Source of the DNA: Patescibacteria group bacterium
GTDB taxonomy: Bacteria > Patescibacteriota > JABMPQ01 > JAHIRA01
NCBI GenBank assembly: GCA_018818205.1
Contig: JAHISJ010000024.1
Location: 17,093-81,092 of the forward strand
Length of the DNA stretch: 64,000 nt
Direction: 5' to 3'
The translations under genes were made by a program, and so were the position numbers. The notes beneath the pieces are model-generated. The model had not been told where the DNA came from, made no database searches, and was given only the letters and a program-made list of their open reading frames with translations. How positions within the stretch are numbered: position 1 is the stretch's first letter; each line of letters opens with the position of its first letter. This document shows positions 4,262 through 38,249 of the stretch, piece by piece.

Positions 4262-4290
4262 AAAAAAACGCCCTTATCAATAGGCGTCGG
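4262..4290 (-). terminator. Rho-independent terminator downstream of ribH
   Basis: Minus-strand hairpin acgcc-N9-ggcgt followed by a T7 run. Confidence 0.45.
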
Positions 4291-4325
4291 ATATTTTTTA
4301 GATGAAACGCACTGTGCCGATTCTT

Positions 4326-4787
4326 CTACATCATCCTATACAAATTCACCATTTCTATCGCTGCTCTAGCAAAAGCAGTGCCTTTGTGTTCTTTTCTGTA
4401 TACTCTATCCAATGCTTGATCAACCGTATAGCACGTTAAAATACCATTTATAATCGGCATTTCAAGACCCAGGGTAATATCCATAATACCACGCATAGAC
4501 TCTTTGGATACATACTCAAAATGCGCCGTCTCGCCTTTAATCACGCATCCCAATGCTATTATTGCGTCTAATTCATGATTACGCATTATTTTAAGACTTG
4601 CCTGAGGGATCTCAAGCGCGCCGGGAACAAACCCAATGGTAATGTCGTCCTTTTGCACCTTCTGCGCTATAAGCTCCTTTTGCACGTCAGCAAGAAGCGC
4701 ATATGTACACGGTTCATTAAACCTAGCAGCAATGATGCCTACTTTTACGCCAAACCCATCACCCACACCACGATAAAAACGATTCAT
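4326..4787 (-). CDS. ribH: 6,7-dimethyl-8-ribityllumazine synthase
   Basis: GVKVGIIAARFNE...ALGCVIKGETAHFEYV is the typical RibH fold signature. Start placed at MNRFYRG. Confidence 0.9.
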   Translation of the reverse strand: MNRFYRGVGDGFGVKVGIIAARFNEPCTYALLADVQKELIAQKVQKDDITIGFVPGALEIPQASLKIMRNHELDAIIALGCVIKGETAHFEYVSKESMRGIMDITLGLEMPIINGILTCYTVDQALDRVYRKEHKGTAFARAAIEMVNLYRMM

Positions 4788-4798
4788 TGATTTTTTTA

Positions 4799-5389
4799 TT
4801 ACTCTGTTTTTTTGCACTGGCACGCGTAGCGTGCCAACATATCTACCTCTACATTTATATTATCATTTTCTTTGATACTTTTGAAGGTAGTATATACAAG
4901 CGTATGTGGAATAAGATCAACAGAAAAAGTCGATTTTCCCCTTTTTGAGACGGTAAGACTCACACCGTTAAGCGCAATAGAGCCTTTTTGAGCAACAAGG
5001 TGATCAAGCTCTTTTGGCAGCTCAAAGGTAAACCGTTTTGAATCACCGGTTGCTGCAATGACACGTACTGGAATAACCGTATCAACGTGACCAAAAACAA
5101 AATGACCAGAAATGGGATCGCCTACTTTGAGCGATTTTTCAAGATTGACCGTGTCTCCTACATTGAGCATCCCCAGTGTTGTTTTTTCTAGTGTTTCAGG
5201 CATTAACTGAGCGGTAAAATCACTGCCCGTAAACGCAACAACGGTGGTGCAGACACCATCAATAGCAATACTCTCACCAACACATACACCGCTTACCGTT
5301 TTTGGAGCAGTAACGGTGAGTGAGATCATGTCATTTAGTGTTTTTTTTGTGAAAACCGTTCCTAAATCGGTAATAATACCGGTAAACAT
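4799..5389 (-). CDS. ribE: Riboflavin synthase alpha subunit
   Basis: N-terminal MFTGIITDLG and the internal repeat FGHVDTV are characteristic of lumazine-binding riboflavin synthase. Confidence 0.9.
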   Translation of the reverse strand: MFTGIITDLGTVFTKKTLNDMISLTVTAPKTVSGVCVGESIAIDGVCTTVVAFTGSDFTAQLMPETLEKTTLGMLNVGDTVNLEKSLKVGDPISGHFVFGHVDTVIPVRVIAATGDSKRFTFELPKELDHLVAQKGSIALNGVSLTVSKRGKSTFSVDLIPHTLVYTTFKSIKENDNINVEVDMLARYACQCKKTE

Positions 5390-5393
5390 AGGT

Positions 5394-5837
5394 TTAGAGA
5401 TTTTTTAAGAAATGACGCGCGGCCTTCTCATCTTCTTTAAGCTGCAAGACCAGTTCTTGCGAGTCATGAAACTTTTTAACCTGCCTAAGAAGCTTTAATA
5501 GATTGAGCTCAACACGCTCATTGTATAAATCGCCATTATAATCTAAGAGATGTACCTCACACCGTGGGTCCTTTACATTAAACGTCTCAACAATACCAAC
5601 GTGCGCAATACCTTTGAGAATACGCTCTTTGATCTTTGCTAAAACAACGTACACACCATACGGGATGGTGAGATTTCCAATCTTCATATTGACTGTAGGA
5701 AATCCTAATTCTCTTCCTCGTTTGTCACCTTCTTGAACTTTTCCGGCAATATAAAACGGGGGATTTAAGACGGCTGCAGCAGCGACTGCAGGAGGTGTCT
5801 CAATATTATTTTTTGTCTCTATTCTTTGTGATGCCAT
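5394..5837 (-). CDS. Monofunctional riboflavin kinase (RibF C-terminal-domain type)
   Basis: GRELGFPTVNM ... HLLDYNGDLY flavokinase motifs. No FAD-synthetase domain is present. Confidence 0.75.
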   Translation of the reverse strand: MASQRIETKNNIETPPAVAAAAVLNPPFYIAGKVQEGDKRGRELGFPTVNMKIGNLTIPYGVYVVLAKIKERILKGIAHVGIVETFNVKDPRCEVHLLDYNGDLYNERVELNLLKLLRQVKKFHDSQELVLQLKEDEKAARHFLKNL

Positions 5838-5873
5838 ATATGTAGTTATCGTTAATTACTCTGACAACAGACG

Positions 5874-5902
5874 ATACTAGCATATCAAAACTTTTTTGTC
5901 AA
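5874..5902 (-). promoter_or_regulatory. Sigma70-type promoter (TTGACA-N17-TAGTAT) for the riboflavin kinase-ribE-ribH operon
   Basis: Minus-strand consensus -35 and near-consensus -10 about 30 nt upstream of the start codon. The leader is too short for an FMN riboswitch. Confidence 0.5.
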
Positions 5903-6036
5903 GTATGATCCCTAAGACTATCCACAGGTACTGATTAACTACTTCATAGCATACTAGCATATTTTTAATCAAAAAGAAAAGCCAAGCATGTAAAGTGCCC
6001 GGCTATCTGTGATAGTAATACAGTTTCAATATAATT

Positions 6037-6978
6037 TTATTTGCGTGCAAGTGCTGGATTTTCTCGAGGAGTAAGCGCTTTTTTCTTGGTCTCAAGATAG
6101 TGCCAGAAGAAGAATCCTCCCGACGTCAGCGCAAAGGTCCCACCAACAATCCAGAAATAGGCATTAGAGTTTTTCCAACCACCATTCACTTTCAAGAGAT
6201 CATCAACGGCAGGATACTGGCGCGCCGCAAAATGGGTACCAATTCTCTGGTTATTGACTTCAATCGCGATTGTGGTGACAAGAGCTCCAACGACTGCAAT
6301 AGCTGCAAGAGACGCAGTGCCTAGAGCCACATCTCTACGCCAATATTCACTCGACGGTCTTTTTTTTGGAGGAGGTTTGGTGATGTGAATCTTGGGATCA
6401 AGTGAAGCAAGACGAATGAGTTTTTTGCCTGTTTTAAGATCAGCGGTCATTGAAGTAGGACTTCTGCCTTTACAAACAAAGATTTTACCAAAGTCAGGCT
6501 GGATTGGATCCTTTGAGCCTTTTTTGGAGTCAAAGATGTCAGTGATCCACTCGTCAAGCGCCCTACGAATACAGGTACCATTGGCACCGTTTTTTCGGAA
6601 GAATACCCAACGGGTCCAGTCTTGGACTGTCCCTTCAATGCTGCGTGTACGTTTGAAAAACGTCATGCGAACCCCGTAGTAGGGAACGCCGGTACGCGAT
6701 TGTTGGAAGACATGCACAATGGCTTTAAGCTCATTCCATTCCAGATCACGAGAAATGCGATCGGAACAACCCGTCTCGTAGAAACCACAAATGCGGTTCT
6801 CTTTGATTGTATGCTTTGCCCGAAGTGCGTTTTTAAGCGGAAGGTAGAGATAATTTTGCCAGCTGCTACTAAATGCTCGCTGGGGAATAACTAATGTGAT
6901 TTTTTCTGCATATGCGTTACTCGCAAATAAGAAAAAAAGAATGCTTACAAAAATGTTAAAAGATGATTTATACATCAT
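6037..6978 (-). CDS. Secreted/membrane-anchored hypothetical protein (paralog of 7107..8480)
   Basis: Signal peptide, C-terminal TM helix, GGAGG SD. Central region shares ALDEWITDIFDSKKGSKDP with ALLHWVKDLFNSRKKAVDP of the neighbouring gene. Confidence 0.6.
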   Translation of the reverse strand: MMYKSSFNIFVSILFFLFASNAYAEKITLVIPQRAFSSSWQNYLYLPLKNALRAKHTIKENRICGFYETGCSDRISRDLEWNELKAIVHVFQQSRTGVPYYGVRMTFFKRTRSIEGTVQDWTRWVFFRKNGANGTCIRRALDEWITDIFDSKKGSKDPIQPDFGKIFVCKGRSPTSMTADLKTGKKLIRLASLDPKIHITKPPPKKRPSSEYWRRDVALGTASLAAIAVVGALVTTIAIEVNNQRIGTHFAARQYPAVDDLLKVNGGWKNSNAYFWIVGGTFALTSGGFFFWHYLETKKKALTPRENPALARK

Positions 6979-7060
6979 TCCTCCTAAAGAATGGTTTTGA
7001 GAGTTCAGTTTTCGCTTTCAACGTACTGCAATAATGCAGTTCTGTCAATACTACTATAAC

Positions 7061-7082
7061 AAAAAAGCTGACAGATGTCAGC
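7061..7082 (-). terminator. Rho-independent terminator
   Basis: Perfect palindrome gctgaca-ga-tgtcagc followed (minus strand) by T6. Confidence 0.55.
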
Positions 7083-7106
7083 ATAATATTAAATTTTTTG
7101 TCAGAG

Positions 7107-8480
7107 TCAGTGAATGGGAGTGCCATCCGGCAAAATGTGTATGTGTGTTCCAAGGAGCAAAGAATTTTTAGGAGTTGGCGTTGAAGTGGGGATAACATGA
7201 AGAACTTTGGGTTTTGCATACGCGTCCCAAATGAGAAATCCTGTACCCGCCGCTAAAGAGACTCCCGCAATGACCAAAAGGGTTGTTGACACTGTTTTAA
7301 GCGTCGACGTGGTTTTAAACAACTCATCGAGCTTTACAAGCGTTTCTTTTGAGAAATCACCTTTGGCATAGAGTGTATCAAACTCAGATTTGGTAGTAAA
7401 ATGCACTACAAGTGTCACCACCCCACTAATGAGAGAGAGTCCACCTACGCATAATCCAACACCACCAATAGCACGTCTGATCTTACTTGACGCAGTCAAA
7501 TCGTACCGAAACGTACACTTCTTTGGTAAGGAAATAGCTTTTTTAACACCTAGCGCCCAGTAAAACATTTTTGACACGATTATTTTTCTGCAATCAGTAA
7601 GCGCAGATCCACCTCGTGAGAGCGTCACATGAATCGCCTGGCACTTTTCAGAGCCACTCGACTTCTGAACACACTGTGTCCCTTTAAACTCTTCAATGGG
7701 GCCGTTTGAGTAGCTCTCAAGCATAAGCCACGTTGCCTTTTGCAAGTAAACATAGCGCTTCTCACACGCCATATTGGCAACTTTGCACGCAGCTGATGTC
7801 TTTATGACCTCCGCTGTTGGCTGCTCAAAACGTGCATCATGCTCAAGCGCGTTGGCACTTAATTTCTCAAGTAAGATATTCTTATACCACGAGTGGGTAA
7901 TACGAGAAAACGGTAAGATAATCTTCCTAGACGGCTTTGGTTCAATAAGAGGCCAATCGCTCATATCATCAGGATCAACAGCTTTTTTTCTACTGTTAAA
8001 CAAGTCCTTAACCCAGTGAAGTAGCGCATTTTTAAGCGCAGACTCCGTACTGTTTGGGTTAAGAAGTGCACCACGTGGCCACGAAACGCTTGAATTAGGA
8101 TTCCTTTTTGAAGGAAAAATCACTCTTACAAGCACTCCATACCTGTCAACTTTCTTAACCTCTTGTTTAAAGATAGAAACCTCCACAAAAGCATGGCTAT
8201 AGGATAGCATGCGCAATTGTTTGATGCATTTTTCTGTAAGTATCATGCACGATTTGTCGCCATCCAACCCTTTAAATACTTGAGAAAGTGTTTGCAATAA
8301 TACTTTCGCTTTTGGATATCGCTTTTTAAGCGCCCATAATAATGCCGCAAAAACAGGTTTCAACTCCGTTTTAACGTTTTTTTGAAGCACAATGATTTCT
8401 GAGGGAATCTGCTTTTTGGCATACGCCAAAGAATTCATGCACAAAAATGCAGCAATACACACCATTTGTATCTTTTTCAA
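7107..8480 (-). CDS. Secreted/membrane-anchored hypothetical protein (paralog of 6037..6978)
   Basis: Signal peptide MKKIQMVCIAAFLCMNSLAYA, C-terminal TM helices, AGGAGG SD. Confidence 0.6.
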   Translation of the reverse strand: MKKIQMVCIAAFLCMNSLAYAKKQIPSEIIVLQKNVKTELKPVFAALLWALKKRYPKAKVLLQTLSQVFKGLDGDKSCMILTEKCIKQLRMLSYSHAFVEVSIFKQEVKKVDRYGVLVRVIFPSKRNPNSSVSWPRGALLNPNSTESALKNALLHWVKDLFNSRKKAVDPDDMSDWPLIEPKPSRKIILPFSRITHSWYKNILLEKLSANALEHDARFEQPTAEVIKTSAACKVANMACEKRYVYLQKATWLMLESYSNGPIEEFKGTQCVQKSSGSEKCQAIHVTLSRGGSALTDCRKIIVSKMFYWALGVKKAISLPKKCTFRYDLTASSKIRRAIGGVGLCVGGLSLISGVVTLVVHFTTKSEFDTLYAKGDFSKETLVKLDELFKTTSTLKTVSTTLLVIAGVSLAAGTGFLIWDAYAKPKVLHVIPTSTPTPKNSLLLGTHIHILPDGTPIH

Positions 8481-14994: not shown

Positions 14995-16602
14995 TTATTG
15001 TTCTCTAAATATTTCTTCTTTTTTTTCTTTAATAAACCCTAGCCACTCTTCAAAAATTTCTACCAGCCCCTTAAATGGCGCTTCGATGATAACATCAAGG
15101 ATAAATACAAATACGTTCACTCGTGAGAAGTTAAGCGACATCCATCTTCCCGCTCGTATAATCGGTAATGCAAGTAGATCGAGTCCAAGGGTAAAAATGT
15201 TTTCTTTATTATCAAGCACCAAAAGTTCCTTTGCACTATGTCTAATCTTAAACCCGAAAAAGCTGACAAGACACAAGAAAAGTAAGAAAAGGAAAATACT
15301 GACAGCATTAAACCCAATTCTGGAAAGCGCAAACACGACAATGCCAAACGAAATCACAAAGAGTGTTGCGTACAGAATATTAAAGACAAGCCCCGCAATA
15401 CCCCGTTTTGTAACCGCTTTCTTAATTTCATACGCACCACCTTCTTCTTCATATCCATACACAACTTCCTTGAGGCCGTGAATAATTTTCTCAGTATTCT
15501 TCTCATCTGGTTTTTTGACGGTCAAAACTAAAACGGCAAGAAAGATTGGGTGAAACAAAACATTTACGATAAGCGGCAACCACTGCAATTCACCAAGAAA
15601 ATATATATCGTACGGAACTTCCAATATAAGTGCTAGCAGCATTTTGGTAAGGAAAATATACAAAATACTTCGTATAATGGCTCGCTTAAGTTTGGCATCC
15701 TGCTCTTTGTATTGCTTTAAACACGCCTGTTCAACCGCATTATCAAGCTCTTCCGGCTCAGAAAGCATTGCCTCAGCCTTGTCTGGGTTTGCTTCAATAA
15801 CGTCCTGCAAAATAATAAATAGCGGCGTGTATTTTCTTACTCGAACCATAAAATAGCGATTCAAAGGATGTCCCACAAGACGATCCACCTGCTCCTTAAC
15901 GGAGAGAAGCTCGTTTCTAATCTTTCTTGGATTAGCAAAATCAAGACTTGTCCAGTGAGGAAAGTAGAGTTTGAGCAAACTGTACTCAATCATCGGTTTA
16001 TCTGCTTTGAGCAATGTACGTCTAATCGCAATGTACACCAAAATGTTCTTTTCTTCTTTTTTGAGGGACTTGTCTTTGGAGATAAAGTTATCACTAATTG
16101 AGCGATACATACACTCAACAAGCGCTTCTTGAACTGGTGCCGGGGTCAGTGTTTCCTCGAGTTCACACGCTGCAATATCAATAAACCACTTTACCAGTTT
16201 CTTTTTTTCTTTGGCTTCCTCATTTGACGCAACAGAATTGATGAGGCGGATATACTTATCAAGCACGCGCCCTACATCAATTGTTAAGTCCTCAGGAATG
16301 GTATCGTTTTTTAAATACCCCCCTCGAATAAGCTCCTGAATAAGCGGCAAAGCTACCGTCTTTCCGTTTGCACCACCAACCAAACGCCTTCTAAGCGCCC
16401 GTCTGATTGCATCCGTTCTAAGTAAATGTTCTTCTTTTAAGTCAACTACCGTGCGAATTTTTTCATACAAAAAGGCAACCTTTGACGCGACCTCGCTTAC
16501 AGAAATCTTTGGAACATCGGCCGGATACAGGCCTTTCTCAGACTTCTTAAGCGTCACATCAACGATTCTTCTAACACAAGCTGTTGGTTCATAGAAGCTC
16601 AT
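14995..16602 (-). CDS. Integral membrane protein with large N-terminal soluble domain, hypothetical
   Basis: 535 aa. Multiple C-terminal TM helices. No recognised motif. Confidence 0.55.
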   Translation of the reverse strand: MSFYEPTACVRRIVDVTLKKSEKGLYPADVPKISVSEVASKVAFLYEKIRTVVDLKEEHLLRTDAIRRALRRRLVGGANGKTVALPLIQELIRGGYLKNDTIPEDLTIDVGRVLDKYIRLINSVASNEEAKEKKKLVKWFIDIAACELEETLTPAPVQEALVECMYRSISDNFISKDKSLKKEEKNILVYIAIRRTLLKADKPMIEYSLLKLYFPHWTSLDFANPRKIRNELLSVKEQVDRLVGHPLNRYFMVRVRKYTPLFIILQDVIEANPDKAEAMLSEPEELDNAVEQACLKQYKEQDAKLKRAIIRSILYIFLTKMLLALILEVPYDIYFLGELQWLPLIVNVLFHPIFLAVLVLTVKKPDEKNTEKIIHGLKEVVYGYEEEGGAYEIKKAVTKRGIAGLVFNILYATLFVISFGIVVFALSRIGFNAVSIFLFLLFLCLVSFFGFKIRHSAKELLVLDNKENIFTLGLDLLALPIIRAGRWMSLNFSRVNVFVFILDVIIEAPFKGLVEIFEEWLGFIKEKKEEIFREQ

Positions 16603-16728: not shown

Positions 16729-16757
16729 TTGACCACCAATGAATATTCCTTTAGTAT
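16729..16757 (+). promoter_or_regulatory. Sigma70-type promoter (TTGACC-N17-TAGTAT) for tRNA-Glu
   Basis: -35 and -10 hexamers with a 17-nt spacer, about 20 nt upstream of the tRNA 5' end. Confidence 0.5.
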
Positions 16758-16778
16758 GGTGTTATATTGAAATAGTGA

Positions 16779-16853
16779 GGGGCCATCGTCTAGTGGTTAG
16801 GACACCAGGTTTTCATCCTGGTAACAGGGGTTCGATTCCCCTTGGCCCTACCA
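16779..16853 (+). tRNA. tRNA-Glu (UUC), CCA encoded
   Basis: GGGGCCATCGTCTAGTGGTTAGGACACCAGGTTTTCATCCTGGTAACAGGGGTTCGATTCCCCTTGGCCCTACCA. Anticodon loop TTTTCAT with TTC at positions 34-36. Confidence 0.9.
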
Positions 16854-16860
16854 ATTTGAA

Positions 16861-16899
16861 TACAAAAGAAACCGTTTTAGAGCGGTTTTTTTGTATTCA
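16861..16899 (+). terminator. Rho-independent terminator after tRNA-Glu
   Basis: Nested inverted repeat tgaatacaaaagaaaccg-ttttaga-gcggtttttttgtattca with a T7 run. Confidence 0.6.
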
Positions 16900-17115
16900 A
16901 CGTCCAATTGAAACAACGAGATTAAAACAACCCCACTTTGTCGCGGGACGTGGGTGGGGGGAAGCTGATATAGCGATAGAACCTTTTTTTAGGTTTCCTG
17001 TAGCATATCTTTGGCCAACACAAAATCGTGAGGCGAAAGAGATACAGGATTAAAATAGATGCCTTTACAGAACAAAAAACCACTGCATCCTAGAGAAAAT
17101 ACGGTTTTAATTTTG

Positions 17116-17144: not shown

Positions 17145-17181
17145 ACAGTGATCTTTGCAAAACACCACCAGGAGGAAAAAC

Positions 17182-17433
17182 GTGACAAAAGAACAAATAC
17201 ACGCACAAATTTTGGAACTTGCTGAAGATGCAAACACGTTAGAAACCCCTATTGATGACAAGAAAGATCTTAGAGAATGTGGGCTAGACTCTATCGATCT
17301 CATTGGAATTTTGTTTCACCTTTCTCGCTTATTCCCAAACATAATCATTCCTGAAAATACATTTATGGCCACCCTTACCATACACGCTTTTACTGAACTC
17401 ATGTATACCCTCCTTCAAAATGAAGCAGCATAA
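17182..17433 (+). CDS. Acyl/peptidyl carrier protein-like (phosphopantetheine-binding) small protein
   Basis: GLDSIDLIGILFHL matches the carrier-protein (D)S(L/I)D Ser-attachment motif. GGAGG SD 6 nt before the GTG start at 17182 (ORF-track start ATG 17155). Confidence 0.5.
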   Translation: MTKEQIHAQILELAEDANTLETPIDDKKDLRECGLDSIDLIGILFHLSRLFPNIIIPENTFMATLTIHAFTELMYTLLQNEAA

Positions 17434-17805: not shown

Positions 17806-20124
17806 TTATCGTTTCCCTACACTGACATTCACACCTCCATAAAAATTCTCAGCATACGCCCAAAACCAATCCTTAAGCGTCAAAGCACGCTCGTGTAAAT
17901 CATACGCGCGTACATTTGGCCCACCTGCTCTTGGAGCAACAATAAGCTCGGCTCGGCCATCATAATCAAGATCCCCCGAAGCAAGATTTATACCACTGTG
18001 GAATCCTTCGTTATATGCCATAGTCCAATCAAGCAATTCCAGTGCATTTGAGTTATATTCATACATACGTACATTGGGACCACCGCCAGTTGCCGGCGCA
18101 GTTACTATTTCATCTAAGTTGTCGCCGTCAAAATCACCAATGTCTACGGTTACGCCTCCTTGAAAAGTAACACCATAAATCGATGTATCAACGTCCATGC
18201 GGGCAACATTGTTGGTATATGTAAACACTCTTAGTCGAGACGCACCTCCCTCACGCGGCGTTGTAACGATACTATGAGGTCCATTACTACTCAACTGCGC
18301 TGTCTTCAACTCCACTCCTCCATGAAACGCCTTATCATACGCAAAGAAATAGCCATCTGCAGTAAGCCCGGTGTCCTTGAGAGAAAAGATACCAACATTG
18401 GGGCCTCCATTGCTCGTTGGAACAGTCAGAAGCTCATTTTTTTGGTCACCATCCACATCACCCGCCGCAAGAGTGACTCCTCCATGAAATCCTTCATCAT
18501 ACACCATCTTCCATGCTACAAGCCGCGCTTTACCATCATACGAATACACTCTAACGTTGGGACCACCAGCGCTTAACGGTACAGTGATAATCTCGTCTTT
18601 TCCGTCATTATCAAGATCGGAAAGAAGTACATTGACTCCTCCAGAAAATGTAGCCCCAAAGGGATAAAAACTGTCCAGAAGCGTTCCGTCCATTTTATAC
18701 AGCGCAAGCGGCGCACTGTTTCCTTGGCCCGGAGTCACTGCTATTTCATCATATCCATCACCATTAATATCTCCCGTCTGCGTTATGAATTCTCCTCTGA
18801 GCGTTTTTTCTAAAGCCATGAAAGAAGAGAGGGGCAACCCATCATATTTAAAAATGTTAACTTGCGGGCCTCCCTTTGAGTATGGTGTCGTCGCTATAAA
18901 TCCTGCTCGTGGCTCAGGGCTCTCCTTCATCGTAAATGAATCGATCTCATTTCCCTCCACGTCTTTTGTGTGCATCTCAAGCGAATCTCCTTGTATGTCA
19001 AAACGGGTAAAACTGTGGCTTTTTGATGTAGCAACAACGTTTGGATAGTGAGGATCTGGTGAGTAAAGTGGAGCGCCGCCGCCGCCAACAGTCACATACT
19101 GAACATCGTCTACTACACATCGCGCATAGTAATGATTATGTCCCTGTAGCACAACGTGTACGCCATACTTCTCAAAAAGGGGAGTGAGATCACGCTGCGT
19201 TGAAACGCTGTTTTCATGTGCCCCTGCGCTCCACGCTGGCTTATGTAGTGCTACAATTTTCCATCGCTTGTTTGTCTGTTTTAGATCATTCTCAAGCCAA
19301 GCATACTGAGCACTTCCCTCAGTATAATCCGTCGTATATTGGTCAACAACTGCAATATGAGCTGGTCCATAATCAAATGAATAGTAATAACTATCCTGGG
19401 CTTTATACAACGGGTTTGGCCAGTATTTGCCAAAAAGATAACGATACCCAGTAGGACTGTTCACACCGGCAAGATCATGGTTTCCAACGGCAGGCATTAC
19501 CGGAAATTCCGACAAAAATGATGTAATAGTGGGATAGGTACGATTATAATATTCGGTATCCCAATACGTCTCTTCTTGTCCTCTATCAACTATATCTCCC
19601 GTATGTATAAGCATCGTTTGACGATTTATTGGATCATCCTGCGCATCGTCGAGAACATGAGAAATAACCGTGTTAAACATACCTGGATTGCTCCGTGAAT
19701 CTCCCATCGCATACAATGAGAGACTCTGTGTGGCAGGATACGGTGCGGAATTAAATGATCCATCGTATCGATTTTCATCAATACGTACTTGATAGTACAT
19801 AGTGGAATGTGGCGCTAACCCAGTAATAGTATACAAAAACTGATGTTCGTCCGCACCACTATCATTTTCACGAACAACTGCACTTCCGTCACTGTACTCT
19901 GTTGTAGCACCCCATACTATCTCACTCCTCTCTGGCGTTTTATCCGTTTGCCAAAGCACCGTCATTTCTGTGTTATTACCTGAGTACGTAAGATACGGGC
20001 CCTTCCTAAACTGAGCTCCACTCTCAGCATTAAGCTCATTACAAGAAAAAACCACTACTATACAGAGGGCTACTACTGCGAGAAAAGTGGCCTTGAGCTT
20101 TAAAATACGTTGTTTTTTGAGCAT
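17806..20124 (-). CDS. Secreted purple-acid-phosphatase-like metallophosphoesterase fused to C-terminal FG-GAP repeats
   Basis: Signal peptide. Metallophos motifs GDSRSN, IHTGDIVDRG, GNHD, GHNHYY. At least 5 C-terminal repeats of the GDxDGDGxDEI...GGPNVRVY type. Confidence 0.8.
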   Translation of the reverse strand: MLKKQRILKLKATFLAVVALCIVVVFSCNELNAESGAQFRKGPYLTYSGNNTEMTVLWQTDKTPERSEIVWGATTEYSDGSAVVRENDSGADEHQFLYTITGLAPHSTMYYQVRIDENRYDGSFNSAPYPATQSLSLYAMGDSRSNPGMFNTVISHVLDDAQDDPINRQTMLIHTGDIVDRGQEETYWDTEYYNRTYPTITSFLSEFPVMPAVGNHDLAGVNSPTGYRYLFGKYWPNPLYKAQDSYYYSFDYGPAHIAVVDQYTTDYTEGSAQYAWLENDLKQTNKRWKIVALHKPAWSAGAHENSVSTQRDLTPLFEKYGVHVVLQGHNHYYARCVVDDVQYVTVGGGGAPLYSPDPHYPNVVATSKSHSFTRFDIQGDSLEMHTKDVEGNEIDSFTMKESPEPRAGFIATTPYSKGGPQVNIFKYDGLPLSSFMALEKTLRGEFITQTGDINGDGYDEIAVTPGQGNSAPLALYKMDGTLLDSFYPFGATFSGGVNVLLSDLDNDGKDEIITVPLSAGGPNVRVYSYDGKARLVAWKMVYDEGFHGGVTLAAGDVDGDQKNELLTVPTSNGGPNVGIFSLKDTGLTADGYFFAYDKAFHGGVELKTAQLSSNGPHSIVTTPREGGASRLRVFTYTNNVARMDVDTSIYGVTFQGGVTVDIGDFDGDNLDEIVTAPATGGGPNVRMYEYNSNALELLDWTMAYNEGFHSGINLASGDLDYDGRAELIVAPRAGGPNVRAYDLHERALTLKDWFWAYAENFYGGVNVSVGKR

Positions 20125-20275
20125 TTATTGTCTATTTCTTTTTTGTTATTTTAACAAATTCGAGTCTTTCTCACAATTATTTCTTTCTTTTGCTCTGTTT
20201 TCCCTTTACTTTTCTCTTATTGTATGCTATGATGAGCATGAAGTGAAAGCAGGAGAGAATAAAACAAAAGACAAT

Positions 20276-21823
20276 ATGGCACACACGTTAAAGAATTTTT
20301 TTCTATTAGGGTTTTGTCTATTGTTTGCGTTAGCATCGGTTAACTCAAGCACTTCATACTCCGCGCATGCCGAAACGCGTGATTTTGGCTATCCAATAGA
20401 GCCCTGGAATACAACACAAGGCGGCGGTGAATTTGGTGCAGAGCGCTCAGGCAACGTTTATCATCTTGGTGATGATGTAACCGCTCCAGCAGGAACCGCT
20501 ATTTATGCTTTTGGGAGTGGTATTGTTAAGCATATTGGCATACACAGTCGTTTTGGCACGGTTATACTTATTGAACACGAGTTAGTCAGTGAAGAAAAAA
20601 TAGTCTCTCTCTACGGGCACTTGCGAATGTCCGATGTTGCTGTTTCAGAGGGACAATCGGTAGAAAAAGGAACACTTATTGGTCGTTTGGGGAGCAGAGG
20701 TGCAGAAAACGGGTTTTGGATTGAGCATCTTCATTTTGGCATCCATAAAGGTGCGTACCAGAAAAAATGGGTGTATTGGGGCATGTCAAAACGTCAAGAA
20801 GAGCTTACTAATTGGTACAATCCAAGCTCATTTTTAGCGAAAAATGTCAAATCAAAAAACGTCACTCAAGAGCTTTCTCAAACCGTTCCATATCAAGACG
20901 GAAAAATTATCACCGGCCCAGGAAATGGTGGAAGACCACATGTGAGAGTTATGAAAACAAGTGGTTCGGCATATAAAGAACTCGATTTCTTTGCATACAA
21001 AAGTCCTAAAAAAGCAGGCGCCGACGTAGCAATAGGCGACTTAAACTATGATGGAAAGGACGAAATTATCGTCGGAAACGGACCTGGGGAAACGCCAGAA
21101 ATACACATCTTTGACAAAGAAACCGGGGAGCATGTACGTACCTTTTTGGCCTTCGACGAAGACTTTAAGGGAGGCGTGAGAGTCGCTACCGGTGATATTA
21201 ATAACGATGATGCTGAAGAGATTATTGTCGGTGCTGGACCAGGCGGAGGGGCCCACGTCAGGGTCTTTGATAGAAACGGTACGGTCATTCACAGTAAACT
21301 CTTCCCGTTTGGTAATCAAAAAACAGGGGTTGATGTTGCTGCAGGCGACCTAAATGGTGATGGTAGCGCTGAAATTATTGTATCTTCCGGTCCAGGGAAA
21401 GAAGCACGAATAACCTACTACTCTGGTGATGGAACTCTTTCTAAAGCTTCCATACTTGCCTTCCCCAAAGCTTTTAGAGGTGGCGCGCACGTTACTGCAG
21501 GAGACATAGATAATGATGGCATCGATGAAATAATTGCCGGTGCAGGCCCCGGCGGCGGACCACAAGTGAGAGTATTTGAAGCGGATGGCACTCCACGCGG
21601 TATTCAGTTTTTCCCCTTTCATCACAACTTTAGAGGTGGCATAGATGTTGCTTCAATAGACTTTGATGAAGATGGCAAAGATGAGGTGGTTGCCTCACAA
21701 TTTTCTGGGGGACAGTCGTGGATAAAAGTATACCGCTATAACAACGCTCACACCGTTCTGTCTGAGTTCATTGTCTACGGTACAAACTTTGAAGGTGGCA
21801 CGAACGTTGCAGGAAAACGATAA
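20276..21823 (+). CDS. Secreted M23 (LytM-type) metallopeptidase fused to C-terminal FG-GAP repeats
   Basis: Signal peptide MAHTLKNFFLLGFCLLFALASVNS. M23 motifs YHLGDD and EHLHFGIH. Repeats GDLNYDGKDEIIVGNGPG, GDINNDDAEEIIVGAGPGGGAHVRVFD and others. Start placed at the second ATG (20276). Confidence 0.8.
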   Translation: MAHTLKNFFLLGFCLLFALASVNSSTSYSAHAETRDFGYPIEPWNTTQGGGEFGAERSGNVYHLGDDVTAPAGTAIYAFGSGIVKHIGIHSRFGTVILIEHELVSEEKIVSLYGHLRMSDVAVSEGQSVEKGTLIGRLGSRGAENGFWIEHLHFGIHKGAYQKKWVYWGMSKRQEELTNWYNPSSFLAKNVKSKNVTQELSQTVPYQDGKIITGPGNGGRPHVRVMKTSGSAYKELDFFAYKSPKKAGADVAIGDLNYDGKDEIIVGNGPGETPEIHIFDKETGEHVRTFLAFDEDFKGGVRVATGDINNDDAEEIIVGAGPGGGAHVRVFDRNGTVIHSKLFPFGNQKTGVDVAAGDLNGDGSAEIIVSSGPGKEARITYYSGDGTLSKASILAFPKAFRGGAHVTAGDIDNDGIDEIIAGAGPGGGPQVRVFEADGTPRGIQFFPFHHNFRGGIDVASIDFDEDGKDEVVASQFSGGQSWIKVYRYNNAHTVLSEFIVYGTNFEGGTNVAGKR

Positions 21824-21914
21824 CTTAGCTCTAAATATTGTGTAAAAACAGAGACCTTAGCGGTCTCTGTTTTCTTTTTGTTGCCAAAGATCATTTCACT
21901 GCTACAATGAACGT

Positions 21915-33255: not shown

Positions 33256-34998
33256 ATGAAGAAATTGCTCATTTCTGTGTTTATCTTAATCGTATCAATC
33301 TGGTGCTTTGAGCCATGCGTTTCATATGCCAAAGAAACAAAAACTATTTTGACGCTCGGAGATAGTATTACGTATGGATACCCCTACGGGGAAACTGCTT
33401 ATACATACCCAGCACAACTCTCTGGTATGCTTGCGACGACATCAGAGTACTACACTTATGTCATGTCTAACCATGGTGTAAACGGGTATCGTGCTGATCA
33501 AGTTCTTACCGATTTAATTGATAATAACCGCCTTGAAGAAAATCCAAACTATGTATTACTTATGGTTGGCGGAAATGATCTTGCTCAAGAAATAAATCCG
33601 GACTTGTCAAATATTGACGAGGTGTTGACTCAAACGGTCAATGAAGTTCAGGCGACAATAGACTATATAAAGCTGCATCAAAATCCCGATGGATCTTCCC
33701 CACAAATTATTCTGTCCGCGTTCCCTCCAAATAACCTCTTTGGAACCGGCGGTTCTTTAGTTATTCAAGAATACAACAGTCGCTTGGCCGCAAATTGTGT
33801 TCATTATGATCGATATTTCACTTCGAATTGGGATGATTTTTACGATACACACACGGGGCAAGCAAAGACTACTCTTATGACCGATGATGGAGTACATCCC
33901 AACACAGAAGGATACGCCGTGATTGCTGAAAATTGGTATGAGGCATTGTATCCATTGCTCCCAAACGACCCAAACGATCCAACCCCTAAAAATCCCGACG
34001 ACCCTGTTGTCCCGGTTACTCCCCCCACACCTCCTATACCCCTCACTAAAAACCCAAGAATACTAACTACGTCAGGGCCAGGTGAACGCTCAAAGCTCCA
34101 AGCATACTCACGCCATGGAGAAGCCGAAGGGGAAGAACTAGGTAATCTCTTTCCCGATGCATATCTTGGTGGTACAGGCGTAGTCGCAATTGATGCCAAT
34201 AATAATCATATTAAAGACCAGTTTCTCGTCTTTGCACAAAAAAATGGAGGCCCTCAAGCGAGAATCTTTGGGCTTCGAGAAAATGGTGAAATGATTTTCT
34301 TTGGACAGATGTTTGTTTTTGACTCATCTATTAGAGATGGCCTTAGTATGACTGTCGGTGATTTTGACCAAGATGGCTTTGAAGATGATGTAGCAACCTG
34401 CCTGACCGGCAACAAAAAACCAACTGTTCGTATCTATACCAATGCTCGCAATGTTGATACCTGGAATCTTTTTTCAGAATTCACCGCAGATTTTGGCACC
34501 GTGGGGTGTTCTGTTGGAACCTATCGTTACGGTGATCAATCGCCAAGGCTGCTTATCACACCACACCACGGACCATCAGAACCCACTGTGTTTATTTACA
34601 CTGTAGATGGCACTCTCGAAAATTCTTTTGCTGCATATGGACCAGGCGTTACCAATGGTTTGTCTGCTACTGGAATTCAAGACAGAATTTATACTACACC
34701 CAATAATGGCACTTCGCATGTTAGAGTATTTGATGTGCTTGGTATCGCTAAGAATTCCTGGTGGGCATATTCTAATAAAAATGTAAAAGGCGACTTTAAA
34801 AATACTGTCGGAGATATAGATCTTGATGGAAAAGATGAAATTCTTATCTCTCCAATCGGTGCAAACGGTCCACAGATCTTAGCTTTTGAGCCTTCTGGAA
34901 AATGGAGAACATGGCCTAACTTTTTCGCTTTTAATAACCCTACGCTTCGAAACGGCGTCAGTGTTGCTGTTATCGAAAACTATTACGGCAACAACTAA
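33256..34998 (+). CDS. Secreted SGNH/GDSL hydrolase fused to C-terminal FG-GAP-like repeats
   Basis: Signal peptide MKKLLISVFILIVSIWCFEPCVSYA. SGNH blocks GDSITYG, MVGGNDL, DGVHPN. Repeats GDFDQDGFEDDVATC and GDIDLDGKDEILISPIGANGPQILAFE. Start placed at the internal ATG 33256. Confidence 0.75.
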   Translation: MKKLLISVFILIVSIWCFEPCVSYAKETKTILTLGDSITYGYPYGETAYTYPAQLSGMLATTSEYYTYVMSNHGVNGYRADQVLTDLIDNNRLEENPNYVLLMVGGNDLAQEINPDLSNIDEVLTQTVNEVQATIDYIKLHQNPDGSSPQIILSAFPPNNLFGTGGSLVIQEYNSRLAANCVHYDRYFTSNWDDFYDTHTGQAKTTLMTDDGVHPNTEGYAVIAENWYEALYPLLPNDPNDPTPKNPDDPVVPVTPPTPPIPLTKNPRILTTSGPGERSKLQAYSRHGEAEGEELGNLFPDAYLGGTGVVAIDANNNHIKDQFLVFAQKNGGPQARIFGLRENGEMIFFGQMFVFDSSIRDGLSMTVGDFDQDGFEDDVATCLTGNKKPTVRIYTNARNVDTWNLFSEFTADFGTVGCSVGTYRYGDQSPRLLITPHHGPSEPTVFIYTVDGTLENSFAAYGPGVTNGLSATGIQDRIYTTPNNGTSHVRVFDVLGIAKNSWWAYSNKNVKGDFKNTVGDIDLDGKDEILISPIGANGPQILAFEPSGKWRTWPNFFAFNNPTLRNGVSVAVIENYYGNN

Positions 34999-36461: not shown

Positions 36462-38249
36462 ATGACAGTCATTCGCACAATACTAACTCTCCTTTCACGA
36501 ATACTTCTTGGAATAGGAGCATTCGTGTGTATTGTCGTTTTTGCTATTGCTGTTCTTTACGTTACCGTCACCCTTTCATACGAAGGTGTATTCTTCCCGC
36601 GTACAACCATTGCCGACATAGACGTTTCCGGGAAAACACCCGATGAAGCGTATGCGCTGCTCAAAGAGAAAGAAACTCAGTTCCGTTCATCTTTTTCGCT
36701 TACCTTCCATGAACATGAAGATGCTGTCGCAATCGAGCAGCTTGGTTTTTCTCTCGACCCAAAAAAAACAATTGTTGACGCGTATAAAGACGGAAGATCA
36801 GGCTCGCTCATAACCGATGCTCTCCGTATAACAGAAATAACGATTCAGGGAACAGACGTACCGCTTGCATACTCAGTTGCCCCTGCTGTGTTTAACACGT
36901 ATGTGCACAATAAGCTTATTGATTGGGGTACACCACACGAAGAGGCTCGCGTGTCACTGTCTGATGACACGCTACACTATACTGAAGGCCAGCCCGGGAC
37001 GAGTGTTCATCAAAAAGCTCTGCTTTCACGACTAACAAGTGCCGTTCAAATGCTTGGTCCTGACCACGTGTCAGTACCATACGCAAAGGCTCACCCAAAA
37101 ATCGCACAAAATGAACTCATGCATGCCCGAAGCGAAGCTTTAACGCTCTCCTCTAAACCGCTTACGTTACGAATGAATGAAAAAACGTGGGAGCTCCCGG
37201 AGCGCTTCCTGAAGGATGCAGTAACCTTTAACGAAAAAAGTGAAACCGCGTCTCTTTCAAAAACCGACTATCTTGAATCTGATAATTTTGATATTGATAA
37301 TTTTATTCGTACATCACTTGGTGAATCACTGCCCTATACAAACACCGTAAGCACCGCACATCTTGACACCAATGCATTGCACACATTTATGGAAGATACT
37401 ATCGCACCAGACGTTACCGAAAAACCAAGGAACGCACGCTTTACCATTAAGGAAGATAATTCACTCGAGTTGCTCGAGGAAAGTACAAAAGGCAAGGAAC
37501 TCCTTCATAAAACGAACATCGCGTACATTGAACATGCCGCCATGGAAAATAGAAGCACGCTCAGAAACATTCCACTTCATCTTAAAATAATTGGCGCTGA
37601 TGTCACTGCTGACACCATTGATGACCTTGGCATTACCGAACTCATCGCAACCGGCGAGTCTAACTTTGCCGGCTCATCATCTGCAAGGCGCCACAACATT
37701 AATACTGGCATGAACAAACTCAATGGTGTTTTGGTAAAACCGGGAGATACCTATTCCTTGCTTGAATATCTAGGCGAAGTCGGCCCGGAAACAGGATATT
37801 TACCAGAACTCGTTATTAAGCCCGGAGAAACCATCAAAGAATATGGCGGAGGGCTATGCCAAGTCGGCACCACTATGTTTAGAGGTGCTATGAACAGTGG
37901 TCTTGAAATAACCGTGCGCCAGTGGCACTCGTATCCCGTTGAATACTACAAACCCTATGGCACTGATGCCACCATTTACAACCCAAGCCCTGATTTTAGA
38001 TTTTTTAATGACACAGAAAACTACATTCTCATCCAAGGAGAGATGGAAGGAAACACTCTCAGATTTAAATTCTATGGTAAAAAAGATGGCAGGGAAGTAC
38101 GATTTGAAGGACCAGACTATTGGGATCACGGCTGGGCAGGTCCTGGGTCACTCCGAGCGAAGTGGACACAAGTTGTTACCATGCCTGATGGAACTGAGCG
38201 CAAAAAAACATTCTACAGTTTTTATAAAAGCCCTGATTCCTATCATTAA
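36462..38249 (+). CDS. VanW-family protein with N-terminal TM anchor
   Basis: C-terminal GGGLCQVGTTMFRGAMNSGLEI...DATIYNP...FRFFNDTENYILIQ matches the VanW signature. Confidence 0.75.
   Translation: MTVIRTILTLLSRILLGIGAFVCIVVFAIAVLYVTVTLSYEGVFFPRTTIADIDVSGKTPDEAYALLKEKETQFRSSFSLTFHEHEDAVAIEQLGFSLDPKKTIVDAYKDGRSGSLITDALRITEITIQGTDVPLAYSVAPAVFNTYVHNKLIDWGTPHEEARVSLSDDTLHYTEGQPGTSVHQKALLSRLTSAVQMLGPDHVSVPYAKAHPKIAQNELMHARSEALTLSSKPLTLRMNEKTWELPERFLKDAVTFNEKSETASLSKTDYLESDNFDIDNFIRTSLGESLPYTNTVSTAHLDTNALHTFMEDTIAPDVTEKPRNARFTIKEDNSLELLEESTKGKELLHKTNIAYIEHAAMENRSTLRNIPLHLKIIGADVTADTIDDLGITELIATGESNFAGSSSARRHNINTGMNKLNGVLVKPGDTYSLLEYLGEVGPETGYLPELVIKPGETIKEYGGGLCQVGTTMFRGAMNSGLEITVRQWHSYPVEYYKPYGTDATIYNPSPDFRFFNDTENYILIQGEMEGNTLRFKFYGKKDGREVRFEGPDYWDHGWAGPGSLRAKWTQVVTMPDGTERKKTFYSFYKSPDSYH

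Follow-up and report, generated by a model that had tools for sequence, protein, structure and literature searches.

A 64,000-nucleotide stretch of the genome of a Patescibacteria group bacterium (contig JAHISJ010000024.1, positions 17,093 to 81,092; hereafter the window) encodes three unrelated hydrolases, a purple acid phosphatase (PAP)-like metallophosphoesterase, an M23 metallopeptidase and an SGNH/GDSL hydrolase, each of which ends in an array of FG-GAP-type repeats. The arrays are predicted beta-propellers of three sub-families, and each sub-family recurs in other genomes with its own partner domains. We judge it moderately probable that the propellers serve as lectin-like, non-catalytic modules and keep exported hydrolases on a polymer of the cell envelope, and that the divergent orientation of two of the genes is incidental. 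The three proteins are members of known families (FG-GAP/VCBS, M23, SGNH and PAP-like metallophosphoesterase); the finding is a sound observation of domain architecture, from which we infer the function.

Hydrolase heads and their propeller domains

A sequence-only reading of the window had placed three such genes, the first two divergent, and the open reading frames (ORFs) match those positions exactly, with a gap of 151 bp between the divergent pair. Its central claim, that three unrelated hydrolase heads carry C-terminal FG-GAP-family repeats, is borne out by Pfam matches, conserved catalytic motifs and predicted propeller folds.

The phosphoesterase matches Metallophos at 62.1 bits, FG-GAP_3 at 62.3 and FG-GAP at 47.5, while Pur_ac_phosph_N (PF16656), which most of its homologues carry, reaches 28.4 bits against a cut-off of 30. 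Its head contains the motifs GDSR, GDIVD, GNHD and GHNH together with H294, and residues D142, D177, N215, H216, H294, H329 and H331 are conserved in 118 to 121 of the 121 sequences aligned (the protein and 120 homologues). By sequence, its nearest entries in the PDB are purple acid phosphatases from plants (E 4e-12, C-terminal half only). The enzyme had been called a purple acid phosphatase. A PAP-like metallophosphoesterase head is indeed present, with six of the PAP metal-ligand positions conserved, but a true purple enzyme is not supported: at position 180, where true PAPs have the Tyr of GDxxY, the window protein has Asp, and homologues have Ser, Tyr, Asn or Ala (Tyr in 17 of 121). Because this residue is altered here and varies in the family, PAP-like metallophosphoesterase is the right label.

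The M23 protein matches Peptidase_M23 at 67.7 bits, FG-GAP_3 at 76.7 and FG-GAP at 60.9. The catalytic residues H63, D67 (HxxxD), H115, H151 and H153 (HxH) are invariant across 43 orthologues, and Foldseek matches the head to lysostaphin and to Csd1/2, DipM and EnvC LytM domains; with both motifs and fold present, it is a family M23 peptidase of the LytM/lysostaphin type. The SGNH protein matches Lipase_GDSL_2 at 74.4 bits, and its residues S37 (GDS), G74, N107 (GGND) and H214 are invariant, and D210 (DxxH) nearly so, across 21 orthologues. Structural matches of this head include TesA, GDSL esterases and carbohydrate esterases, and with blocks I, II, III and V all conserved it is an SGNH/GDSL hydrolase. 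Its repeats are borderline for FG-GAP_3 (28.4 bits against a cut-off of 26.9) and fall below the FG-GAP cut-off (18.5 against 22.1). In the search with FG-GAP models, the phosphoesterase and M23 C-domains are above the Pfam thresholds and the SGNH C-domain is at the border.

All three proteins begin with what looks like a Sec signal peptide. By eye, each N-terminus has a basic n-region, a hydrophobic core of ~15–20 aa and a small-x-small site, with putative cleavage at LNA↓E (phosphoesterase), AHA↓E (M23) and SYA↓K (SGNH). The AlphaFold2 models of the M23 and SGNH proteins begin with a helix, followed by a low-confidence stretch.

Profile matches place the C-domains of all three proteins in the FG-GAP/VCBS repeat family (PF01839, PF13517), and their mutual similarity is far above Gly/Asp-rich chance. 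Pairs of C-domains score 111 bits (phosphoesterase and M23), 61.6 bits (phosphoesterase and SGNH) and 50.4 bits (M23 and SGNH) at 24–31% identity, whereas 100 composition-preserving shuffles gave means of 16.2–16.8 bits (standard deviation ~2.1) and a maximum of 26.2 bits. Because the shuffles stay at 16.5 ± 2.1 bits, the similarity is not one of Gly/Asp composition, and a chance likeness is ruled out.

The repeats have a period of ~52 aa according to a hidden Markov model (HMM) built from the clear units. This model finds a leading partial unit, six full units and a trailing C-terminal partial unit (first strand) in the phosphoesterase; a leading partial unit, five full units and a trailing strand in the M23 protein; and two strong units plus degenerate ones in the SGNH protein. 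Canonical or near-canonical calcium loops occur in 5 of 7, 5 of 6 and 2 of 6 units, respectively. The two-part consensus proposed by the sequence-only reading (GDxDxDGxDEII...GPGGGPxVRVF) describes the M23 and phosphoesterase repeats well but only two of the SGNH repeats. It had also been called lineage-specific, which is ruled out by the same motif outside Patescibacteria: exact GxGGGPH[VI][RK]VF and DxDxDGxxE[IV][IV] occur in Planctomycetales, Gemmatales and Methylomirabilis. Peptide patterns derived from the repeats retrieve propellers of 30–41% identity from Planctomycetota, Acidobacteriota, Methylomirabilis, Aminicenantes and others. Several metagenome-assembled genomes (MAGs) titled 'uncultured Gammaproteobacteria bacterium' also carry Patescibacteria-like propeller genes (L012, L017, L034, L035, L045 and others); one of these, OZ246400.1, is a 931-kb chromosome, and the taxonomic labels look unreliable.

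In the AlphaFold2 models of the M23 and SGNH proteins, which were built from orthologue alignments, the C-domain consists of four-stranded sheets that close as six blades, with the last C-terminal strand completing the first blade and a low-confidence linker between head and propeller (aa 193–205 in M23 and aa 250–262 in SGNH, with a predicted local distance difference test (pLDDT) score below 50 in both). As modelled, these two C-domains are closed beta-propellers of four-stranded blades. The M23 model has a pLDDT of 88.2 overall and ~90–97 over the propeller; its DSSP strand pattern gives six blades, five of them with a DxDxDG-type loop, and the closure blade combines the first three strands with the last. 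The best SGNH model has a pLDDT of 83.6. The two domain types align end to end profile to profile with hhalign (probability 99.5%, E 3e-23) and share one predicted six-blade framework.

A seven-bladed propeller had been expected for all three proteins. The propeller fold is retained in the M23 and SGNH models, but seven blades are ruled out for those two by the six in each model. For the phosphoesterase, the repeats point to seven blades, and BLAST aligns its propeller with that of the M23 protein in two registers, offset by one repeat. In the PDB, the M23 propeller matches integrin alpha4, alpha5 and alphaV by sequence, and Foldseek matches the whole model to integrin alpha propellers and to UmbA4 (9oee_A; query-normalised TM-score (TMq) 0.40).

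Three propeller sub-families on many partner heads

By sequence comparison, the three window propellers fall into three sub-families, each with its own partner heads: type A (M23), type B (SGNH) and PAP-type (phosphoesterase). The sequence-only reading had suggested one common module shuffled onto different catalytic heads. Recombination with many heads in this phylum holds, but a single common module does not, and a module copied three times within this genome is ruled out: the window propellers are 24–31% identical to one another and about 42–66% identical to members of their own sub-family elsewhere.

Module shuffling is well supported, and clearest for type B. Its ~315 C-terminal residues align end to end, at 52–66% identity, with 49 Parcubacteria proteins (P0262–P0310) whose heads are unrelated (M4 peptidase, Big_5, beta-helix, chitobiase-C, Metallophos or no Pfam match). 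In 44 of the 49, the last residue of the module is also that of the protein; in 4, the module directly follows the signal peptide. Within single genomes, type B modules are 55–96% identical while the heads share nothing; in P0273 and P0276, the modules are 96.5% identical and the heads unrelated. Pfam FG-GAP is listed for 20 of 70 type B proteins, and re-scans were sub-threshold or empty. Because Pfam models mostly miss it, the type B cassette merits a domain model of its own; it is the under-recognised part of this finding and the one most worth following up. On a 1.05-Mb ENA contig (ERZ1757541:contig_6554; locus L083, 8178–11962), P0273 lies directly downstream of ftsE/ftsX-like genes, which were identified by ABC_tran and FtsX_ECD/FtsX matches. 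This adjacency may hint at a role in the wall or in division.

Type A has a different set of partners. Of the 120 top-ranking relatives of the M23 propeller, ~44 are M23 fusions and ~40 are YkuD L,D-transpeptidase fusions, and the rest carry dockerin, GH18, DUF11, PKD or no other domain. The propeller can be C-terminal, as in the window's M23 protein, or N-terminal, as it is in the fusions to YkuD and in one to Peptidase_C39_2. A classical PG_binding_1 domain is also present in only one of the ~40 YkuD fusions. Orthologues of the M23 fusion are 43–59% identical to it over the full length.

The PAP-type propeller of seven repeats is found, at 41–49% identity, behind beta-helix, DUF11, CarboxypepD_reg and Ig-like heads. 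It is seldom combined with a PAP-like head. FG-GAP is missing from all of the 120 nearest relatives listed for the phosphoesterase head, and a search of 1.84 billion representatives yielded the combination in only two other representative clusters among the best 150 matches listed (the full-length P0329 and the fragment P0330). A search with the head alone (window 18910–20124, minus strand) missed the query's own 772-aa protein, which is present in the collection, probably because of an indexing limit.

A proposed role in holding enzymes on the envelope

We propose that the three hydrolases were assembled independently to one plan, a signal peptide, an intact head, a flexible linker and a C-terminal propeller, and that all three would be exported by the Sec pathway. 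The propeller, probably calcium-dependent, lectin-like and non-catalytic, would retain on a cell-envelope polymer an enzyme that would otherwise diffuse freely, a task that falls to LysM, SH3b, SLH or carbohydrate-binding modules in other proteins. Each of the three proteins ends on the propeller's closing strand; because the chains end there, they appear to have no sortase signal or other C-terminal anchor. The suggestion of lectin-like retention follows from this lack of another anchor, from partner enzymes that act on walls or surfaces and from the precedent of UmbA4, whose six-bladed propeller is a lectin with conserved calcium-loop positions that binds wall teichuronic acid (PMC13274773).

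For the M23 type, the cell's own wall is favoured as target, while the target of the phosphoesterase and the SGNH hydrolase could be self or host surface. YkuD enzymes work on the producer's own peptidoglycan. We lean towards the self wall for type A because of its sharing with YkuD enzymes, the housekeeping-like nature of the M23 orthologue and the near absence of classical peptidoglycan-binding domains.

Several points weigh against retention on the envelope. The ligand of the propeller is not deducible from sequence, the signal peptides of the three proteins were assigned by eye alone, and the seven blades of the phosphoesterase come from repeat counts rather than from a model. The remaining four of the five SGNH models reach a pLDDT of only 62–74, and the Foldseek TM-score to UmbA4 is low (0.40), a consequence of the two-domain query. 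Contacts between proteins are another known function of beta-propellers, and Patescibacteria are commonly episymbionts. In addition, host glycans have been suggested as targets for envelope proteins with VCBS domains (PMC10633639). Given this lifestyle and this proposal, host targeting is equally compatible with the data for the phosphoesterase and the SGNH hydrolase.

Extended to all three proteins, an attack on another cell is the alternative that survives best, although we consider it unlikely. The propellers would bind the surface of a host or neighbour as adhesins or lectins, and the enzymes would degrade that cell's envelope: the M23 peptidase would cut host peptidoglycan, the phosphoesterase would release phosphate from substrates such as teichoic-acid-like polymers, and the SGNH hydrolase would remove acyl or acetyl groups or free lipids for a lipid-auxotrophic symbiont. 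Reduced genomes and the many epibionts among Patescibacteria fit this account; however, the type A propeller sits equally often on YkuD L,D-transpeptidases, builders of the producer's own wall, and the M23 fusion is a conserved, housekeeping-like orthologue adjoining tsaD. The VCBS-domain envelope protein of Southlakia for which host-glycan targeting was proposed is essential (PMC10633639), and VCBS proteins in Gracilibacteria proteomes have been discussed as adhesion proteins (PMC11452946), but related propellers also occur outside Patescibacteria, for example in Planctomycetota and Acidobacteriota. Of the solved propellers in the 50 PDB matches listed, UmbA4 has the top TM-score, and it binds the wall polymer of a target cell. 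Yet the target-specific UmbA lectins are 20–30% identical, compared with 52–66% for type B across genomes, and such strong conservation fits one conserved ligand better than diversified, host-specific receptors.

The same conservation would also fit a conserved protein partner. The propeller could then be a protein-protein or regulatory domain that docks the enzymes on a surface machine or S-layer, or that auto-regulates the hydrolase, which we regard as quite improbable. In other bacteria, FtsEX governs wall hydrolases by contacts between proteins, and the position of P0273 next to ftsE/ftsX is consistent with such docking, but no candidate partner gene recurs consistently in the loci examined. 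Furthermore, integrin-like calcium loops and FG-GAP/VCBS repeats are mostly tied to ligand or glycan binding, and the flexible linkers to the heads resemble those of enzymes with carbohydrate-binding modules. Least credible, and to our minds very improbable, is that type B is a secretion or sorting signal analogous to the C-terminal domain of the type IX secretion system (T9SS): its strictly C-terminal place in 44 of 49 proteins, its high conservation on unrelated cargo and the T9SS sorting domains at the same position on relatives of the phosphoesterase head in other phyla are set against a complete, closed propeller of ~315 aa that is much larger than known sorting tags, the N-terminal placement in 4 of 49, the Sec-type N-termini that the three window proteins already have and the general view that Patescibacteria have no outer membrane to cross.

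Retention of exported enzymes on the envelope thus remains our preferred reading, and it has a possible extension on which we would not rely: type B, type A and PAP-type propellers together may form the main cell-surface display system of Parcubacteria-type Patescibacteria. If so, a conserved cassette invisible to Pfam, which paralogues exchange or homogenise and which reaches 96% identity on unrelated heads, would hold on one conserved envelope polymer a whole secretome of M4 proteases, esterases, phosphoesterases, beta-helix glycan enzymes and wall hydrolases. This would be the functional counterpart of SLH, LysM and choline-binding domains in a phylum with little-known envelope biology. A large part of bacterial diversity falls within Patescibacteria, and little is known of their surface organisation and host interaction. 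Should the propellers indeed keep enzymes on an envelope polymer, recombinant versions of them could be used to probe the wall or surface polymer of uncultured cells, and the surface-displayed secretome would be definable from sequence alone.

The divergent pair and the surrounding window

The coordinates of the genes, their domains and the associated signals are collected in the table.

Features of the three propeller-hydrolase genes and their surroundings (window coordinates)
Feature	Position	Strand	Details
PAP-like metallophosphoesterase + FG-GAP propeller gene	17806..20124	-	772 aa; ORF and Pfam
Signal-peptide-like N-terminus of phosphoesterase	20026..20124	-	aa 1-33; MLKKQRILKLK, hydrophobic core, LNA↓E
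Phosphoesterase head	18913..20025	-	aa 34-404; FN3-like N-domain and calcineurin-like fold
Propeller of phosphoesterase	17809..18912	-	aa 405-772; six full ~52-aa repeats and a split repeat
Divergent intergenic region, phosphoesterase/M23	20125..20275		151 bp; 118 bp if M23 starts at GTG 20243
M23 (LytM-type) metallopeptidase + FG-GAP propeller gene	20276..21823	+	515 aa; ORF and Pfam
M23 catalytic head and flexible linker	20372..20887	+	aa 33-204
Type A propeller of M23	20888..21820	+	aa 205-515; six blades (predicted)
Terminator-like hairpin after M23 gene	21845..21873	+	12-bp stem and T run
Promoter-like site before tsaD	21881..21908	+	between M23 terminator-like hairpin and tsaD
SGNH/GDSL hydrolase + type B propeller gene	33256..34998	+	580 aa; ORF and Pfam
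SGNH head and Pro-rich linker	33331..34047	+	aa 26-235 head; aa 236-264 linker
Type B propeller cassette of SGNH	34048..34995	+	aa 265-580; six blades (predicted), only two canonical DxDxDG loops

Public gene calls start the M23 gene at ATG 20276 or at GTG 20243 (526 aa); a mechanical ORF from GTG 20087 would run into the neighbouring phosphoesterase gene. The shared upstream region had been taken as a hint of co-regulation. This reading is rejected, given the absence of the pairing in relatives, their differing neighbours and promoter-like hits at the level of shuffled sequence. None of the eight other M23-orthologue loci has the phosphoesterase head in its flanks, and a tblastn search of 82 related loci with this head gave matches in the same organism only. 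Upstream neighbours of the M23 orthologues are instead a phosphoglucomutase-like gene (L003), a propeller-C39 peptidase gene (L005) and a GAPDH gene (L006). In L005, the neighbour (4268–5890, minus strand) encodes an N-terminal FG-GAP propeller with a C-terminal Peptidase_C39_2 domain and is divergent from the M23 orthologue (5986–7482). Conversely, no M23 gene lies near P0329, the other full-length PAP-propeller relative, whose neighbours are unrelated.

Within the spacer, promoter-like hexamers stand back to back (20176–20148, minus strand; 20205–20233, plus strand), but the region holds 11 promoter-like sites against 8.5 ± 2.6 in shuffles, which is no enrichment, and its inverted repeats are AT-rich and imperfect. 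The recurrent linkage is that of the M23 gene with tsaD after it, and in some cases on to valS (L003, L005 and L006); between the window's M23 gene and tsaD lie a strong terminator-like hairpin and a promoter-like site, which separate the two. We take the divergence of the phosphoesterase and M23 genes to be incidental. The 19 nt upstream of the two divergent starts (20126–20144 and 20258–20276) are 79% reverse-complementary, and both leaders end …AGACAATA(A)ATG; they are AT-rich, and the likeness could be chance or a common translation-initiation context.

The window is a piece of a Patescibacteria (Parcubacteria-type) chromosome. Its other genes are housekeeping genes, among them those for a P-type ATPase, a PilB-like ATPase, glutamate dehydrogenase, a ClpC-like protein, GyrA, FtsH, TypA, TsaD, ValRS and two tRNAs. 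A scan of the 64-kb window with the repeat HMM gave no repeat-bearing ORFs beyond the three. Proteins identical to the window's, which NCBI labels with the source "Patescibacteria group bacterium", are encoded on a 106-kb ENA contig and on one Logan contig.

Four further ORFs were observed. A VanW-like protein (36462–38249, plus strand) carries a PG_binding_4 domain, so this genome also employs a classical peptidoglycan-binding domain on another envelope protein. A 535-aa ORF (14995–16602, minus strand) may encode a membrane protein, to judge from hydrophobic stretches near its C-terminus, and has no Pfam match; its homologue in the related locus L006 (478–2118, 39% identity) marks it as a conserved protein. 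Between the tRNA-Glu gene and the phosphoesterase gene, a small ORF (17155–17433, plus strand) gives a weak PP-binding (acyl-carrier-like) match. Finally, a 104-aa ORF (16739–17053, plus strand) overlaps the same-strand tRNA-Glu gene (16779–16853) and is almost certainly a spurious call, one that is also made on the ENA contig.

Comparison with known systems

In public annotation, these architectures appear under several names. NCBI calls the M23 protein 'VCBS repeat domain-containing M23 family metallopeptidase [Patescibacteria group bacterium]', as it does dozens of orthologues; this class is an annotation label only. The SGNH protein is named 'SGNH/GDSL hydrolase family protein [Patescibacteria group bacterium]', and YkuD propeller proteins in Patescibacteria 'L,D-transpeptidase family protein'. 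In the literature searched, we found no papers linking FG-GAP repeats to Patescibacteria or the candidate phyla radiation (CPR), apart from a tangential one on Peregrinibacteria; work on CPR genomes mentions VCBS or FG-GAP proteins only in passing.

For the phosphoesterase, the nearest known systems are bacterial PAP-like metallophosphoesterases with T9SS, FlgD-Ig or dockerin tails. Their heads are 40–48% identical to the window's and have the same metal-ligand motifs and a PAP-type N-domain, but they belong to other phyla and carry different C-terminal modules in place of a propeller. For the M23 protein, lysostaphin-type SH3b, LysM, PG_binding_1 and SLH proteins follow the same logic, in which an M23 or YkuD catalytic domain is joined by a linker to a localising domain. 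The propeller fold is entirely different from the small SH3b and LysM folds, and wall binding by the propeller would be by analogy.

The repeats themselves are like those of integrin alpha, with ~50–60 aa units, an FG…GAP-like core and DxDxDGxxD/E calcium loops. Integrin alpha propellers are seven-bladed, however, compared with the six blades predicted for the M23 and SGNH proteins, and the window propellers are bacterial and come without an integrin beta subunit or I-domain. The SGNH-type domain is degenerate to the point that Pfam hardly registers it or misses it.

The closest structural parallel is UmbA4 of the Streptomyces umbrella toxin particles (PDB 9oee), a six-bladed propeller with conserved calcium-loop positions that lies C-terminal to an enzyme-like domain (PMC13274773). 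It has the highest TMq among the 50 PDB matches listed for the M23 model, at only 0.40. UmbA proteins are the receptor-binding spokes of a toxin complex, and their lectins diversify (20–30% identity), whereas each window propeller is joined directly to a hydrolase, and type B shows strong conservation (52–96%). The likeness to UmbA4 is at the level of fold.

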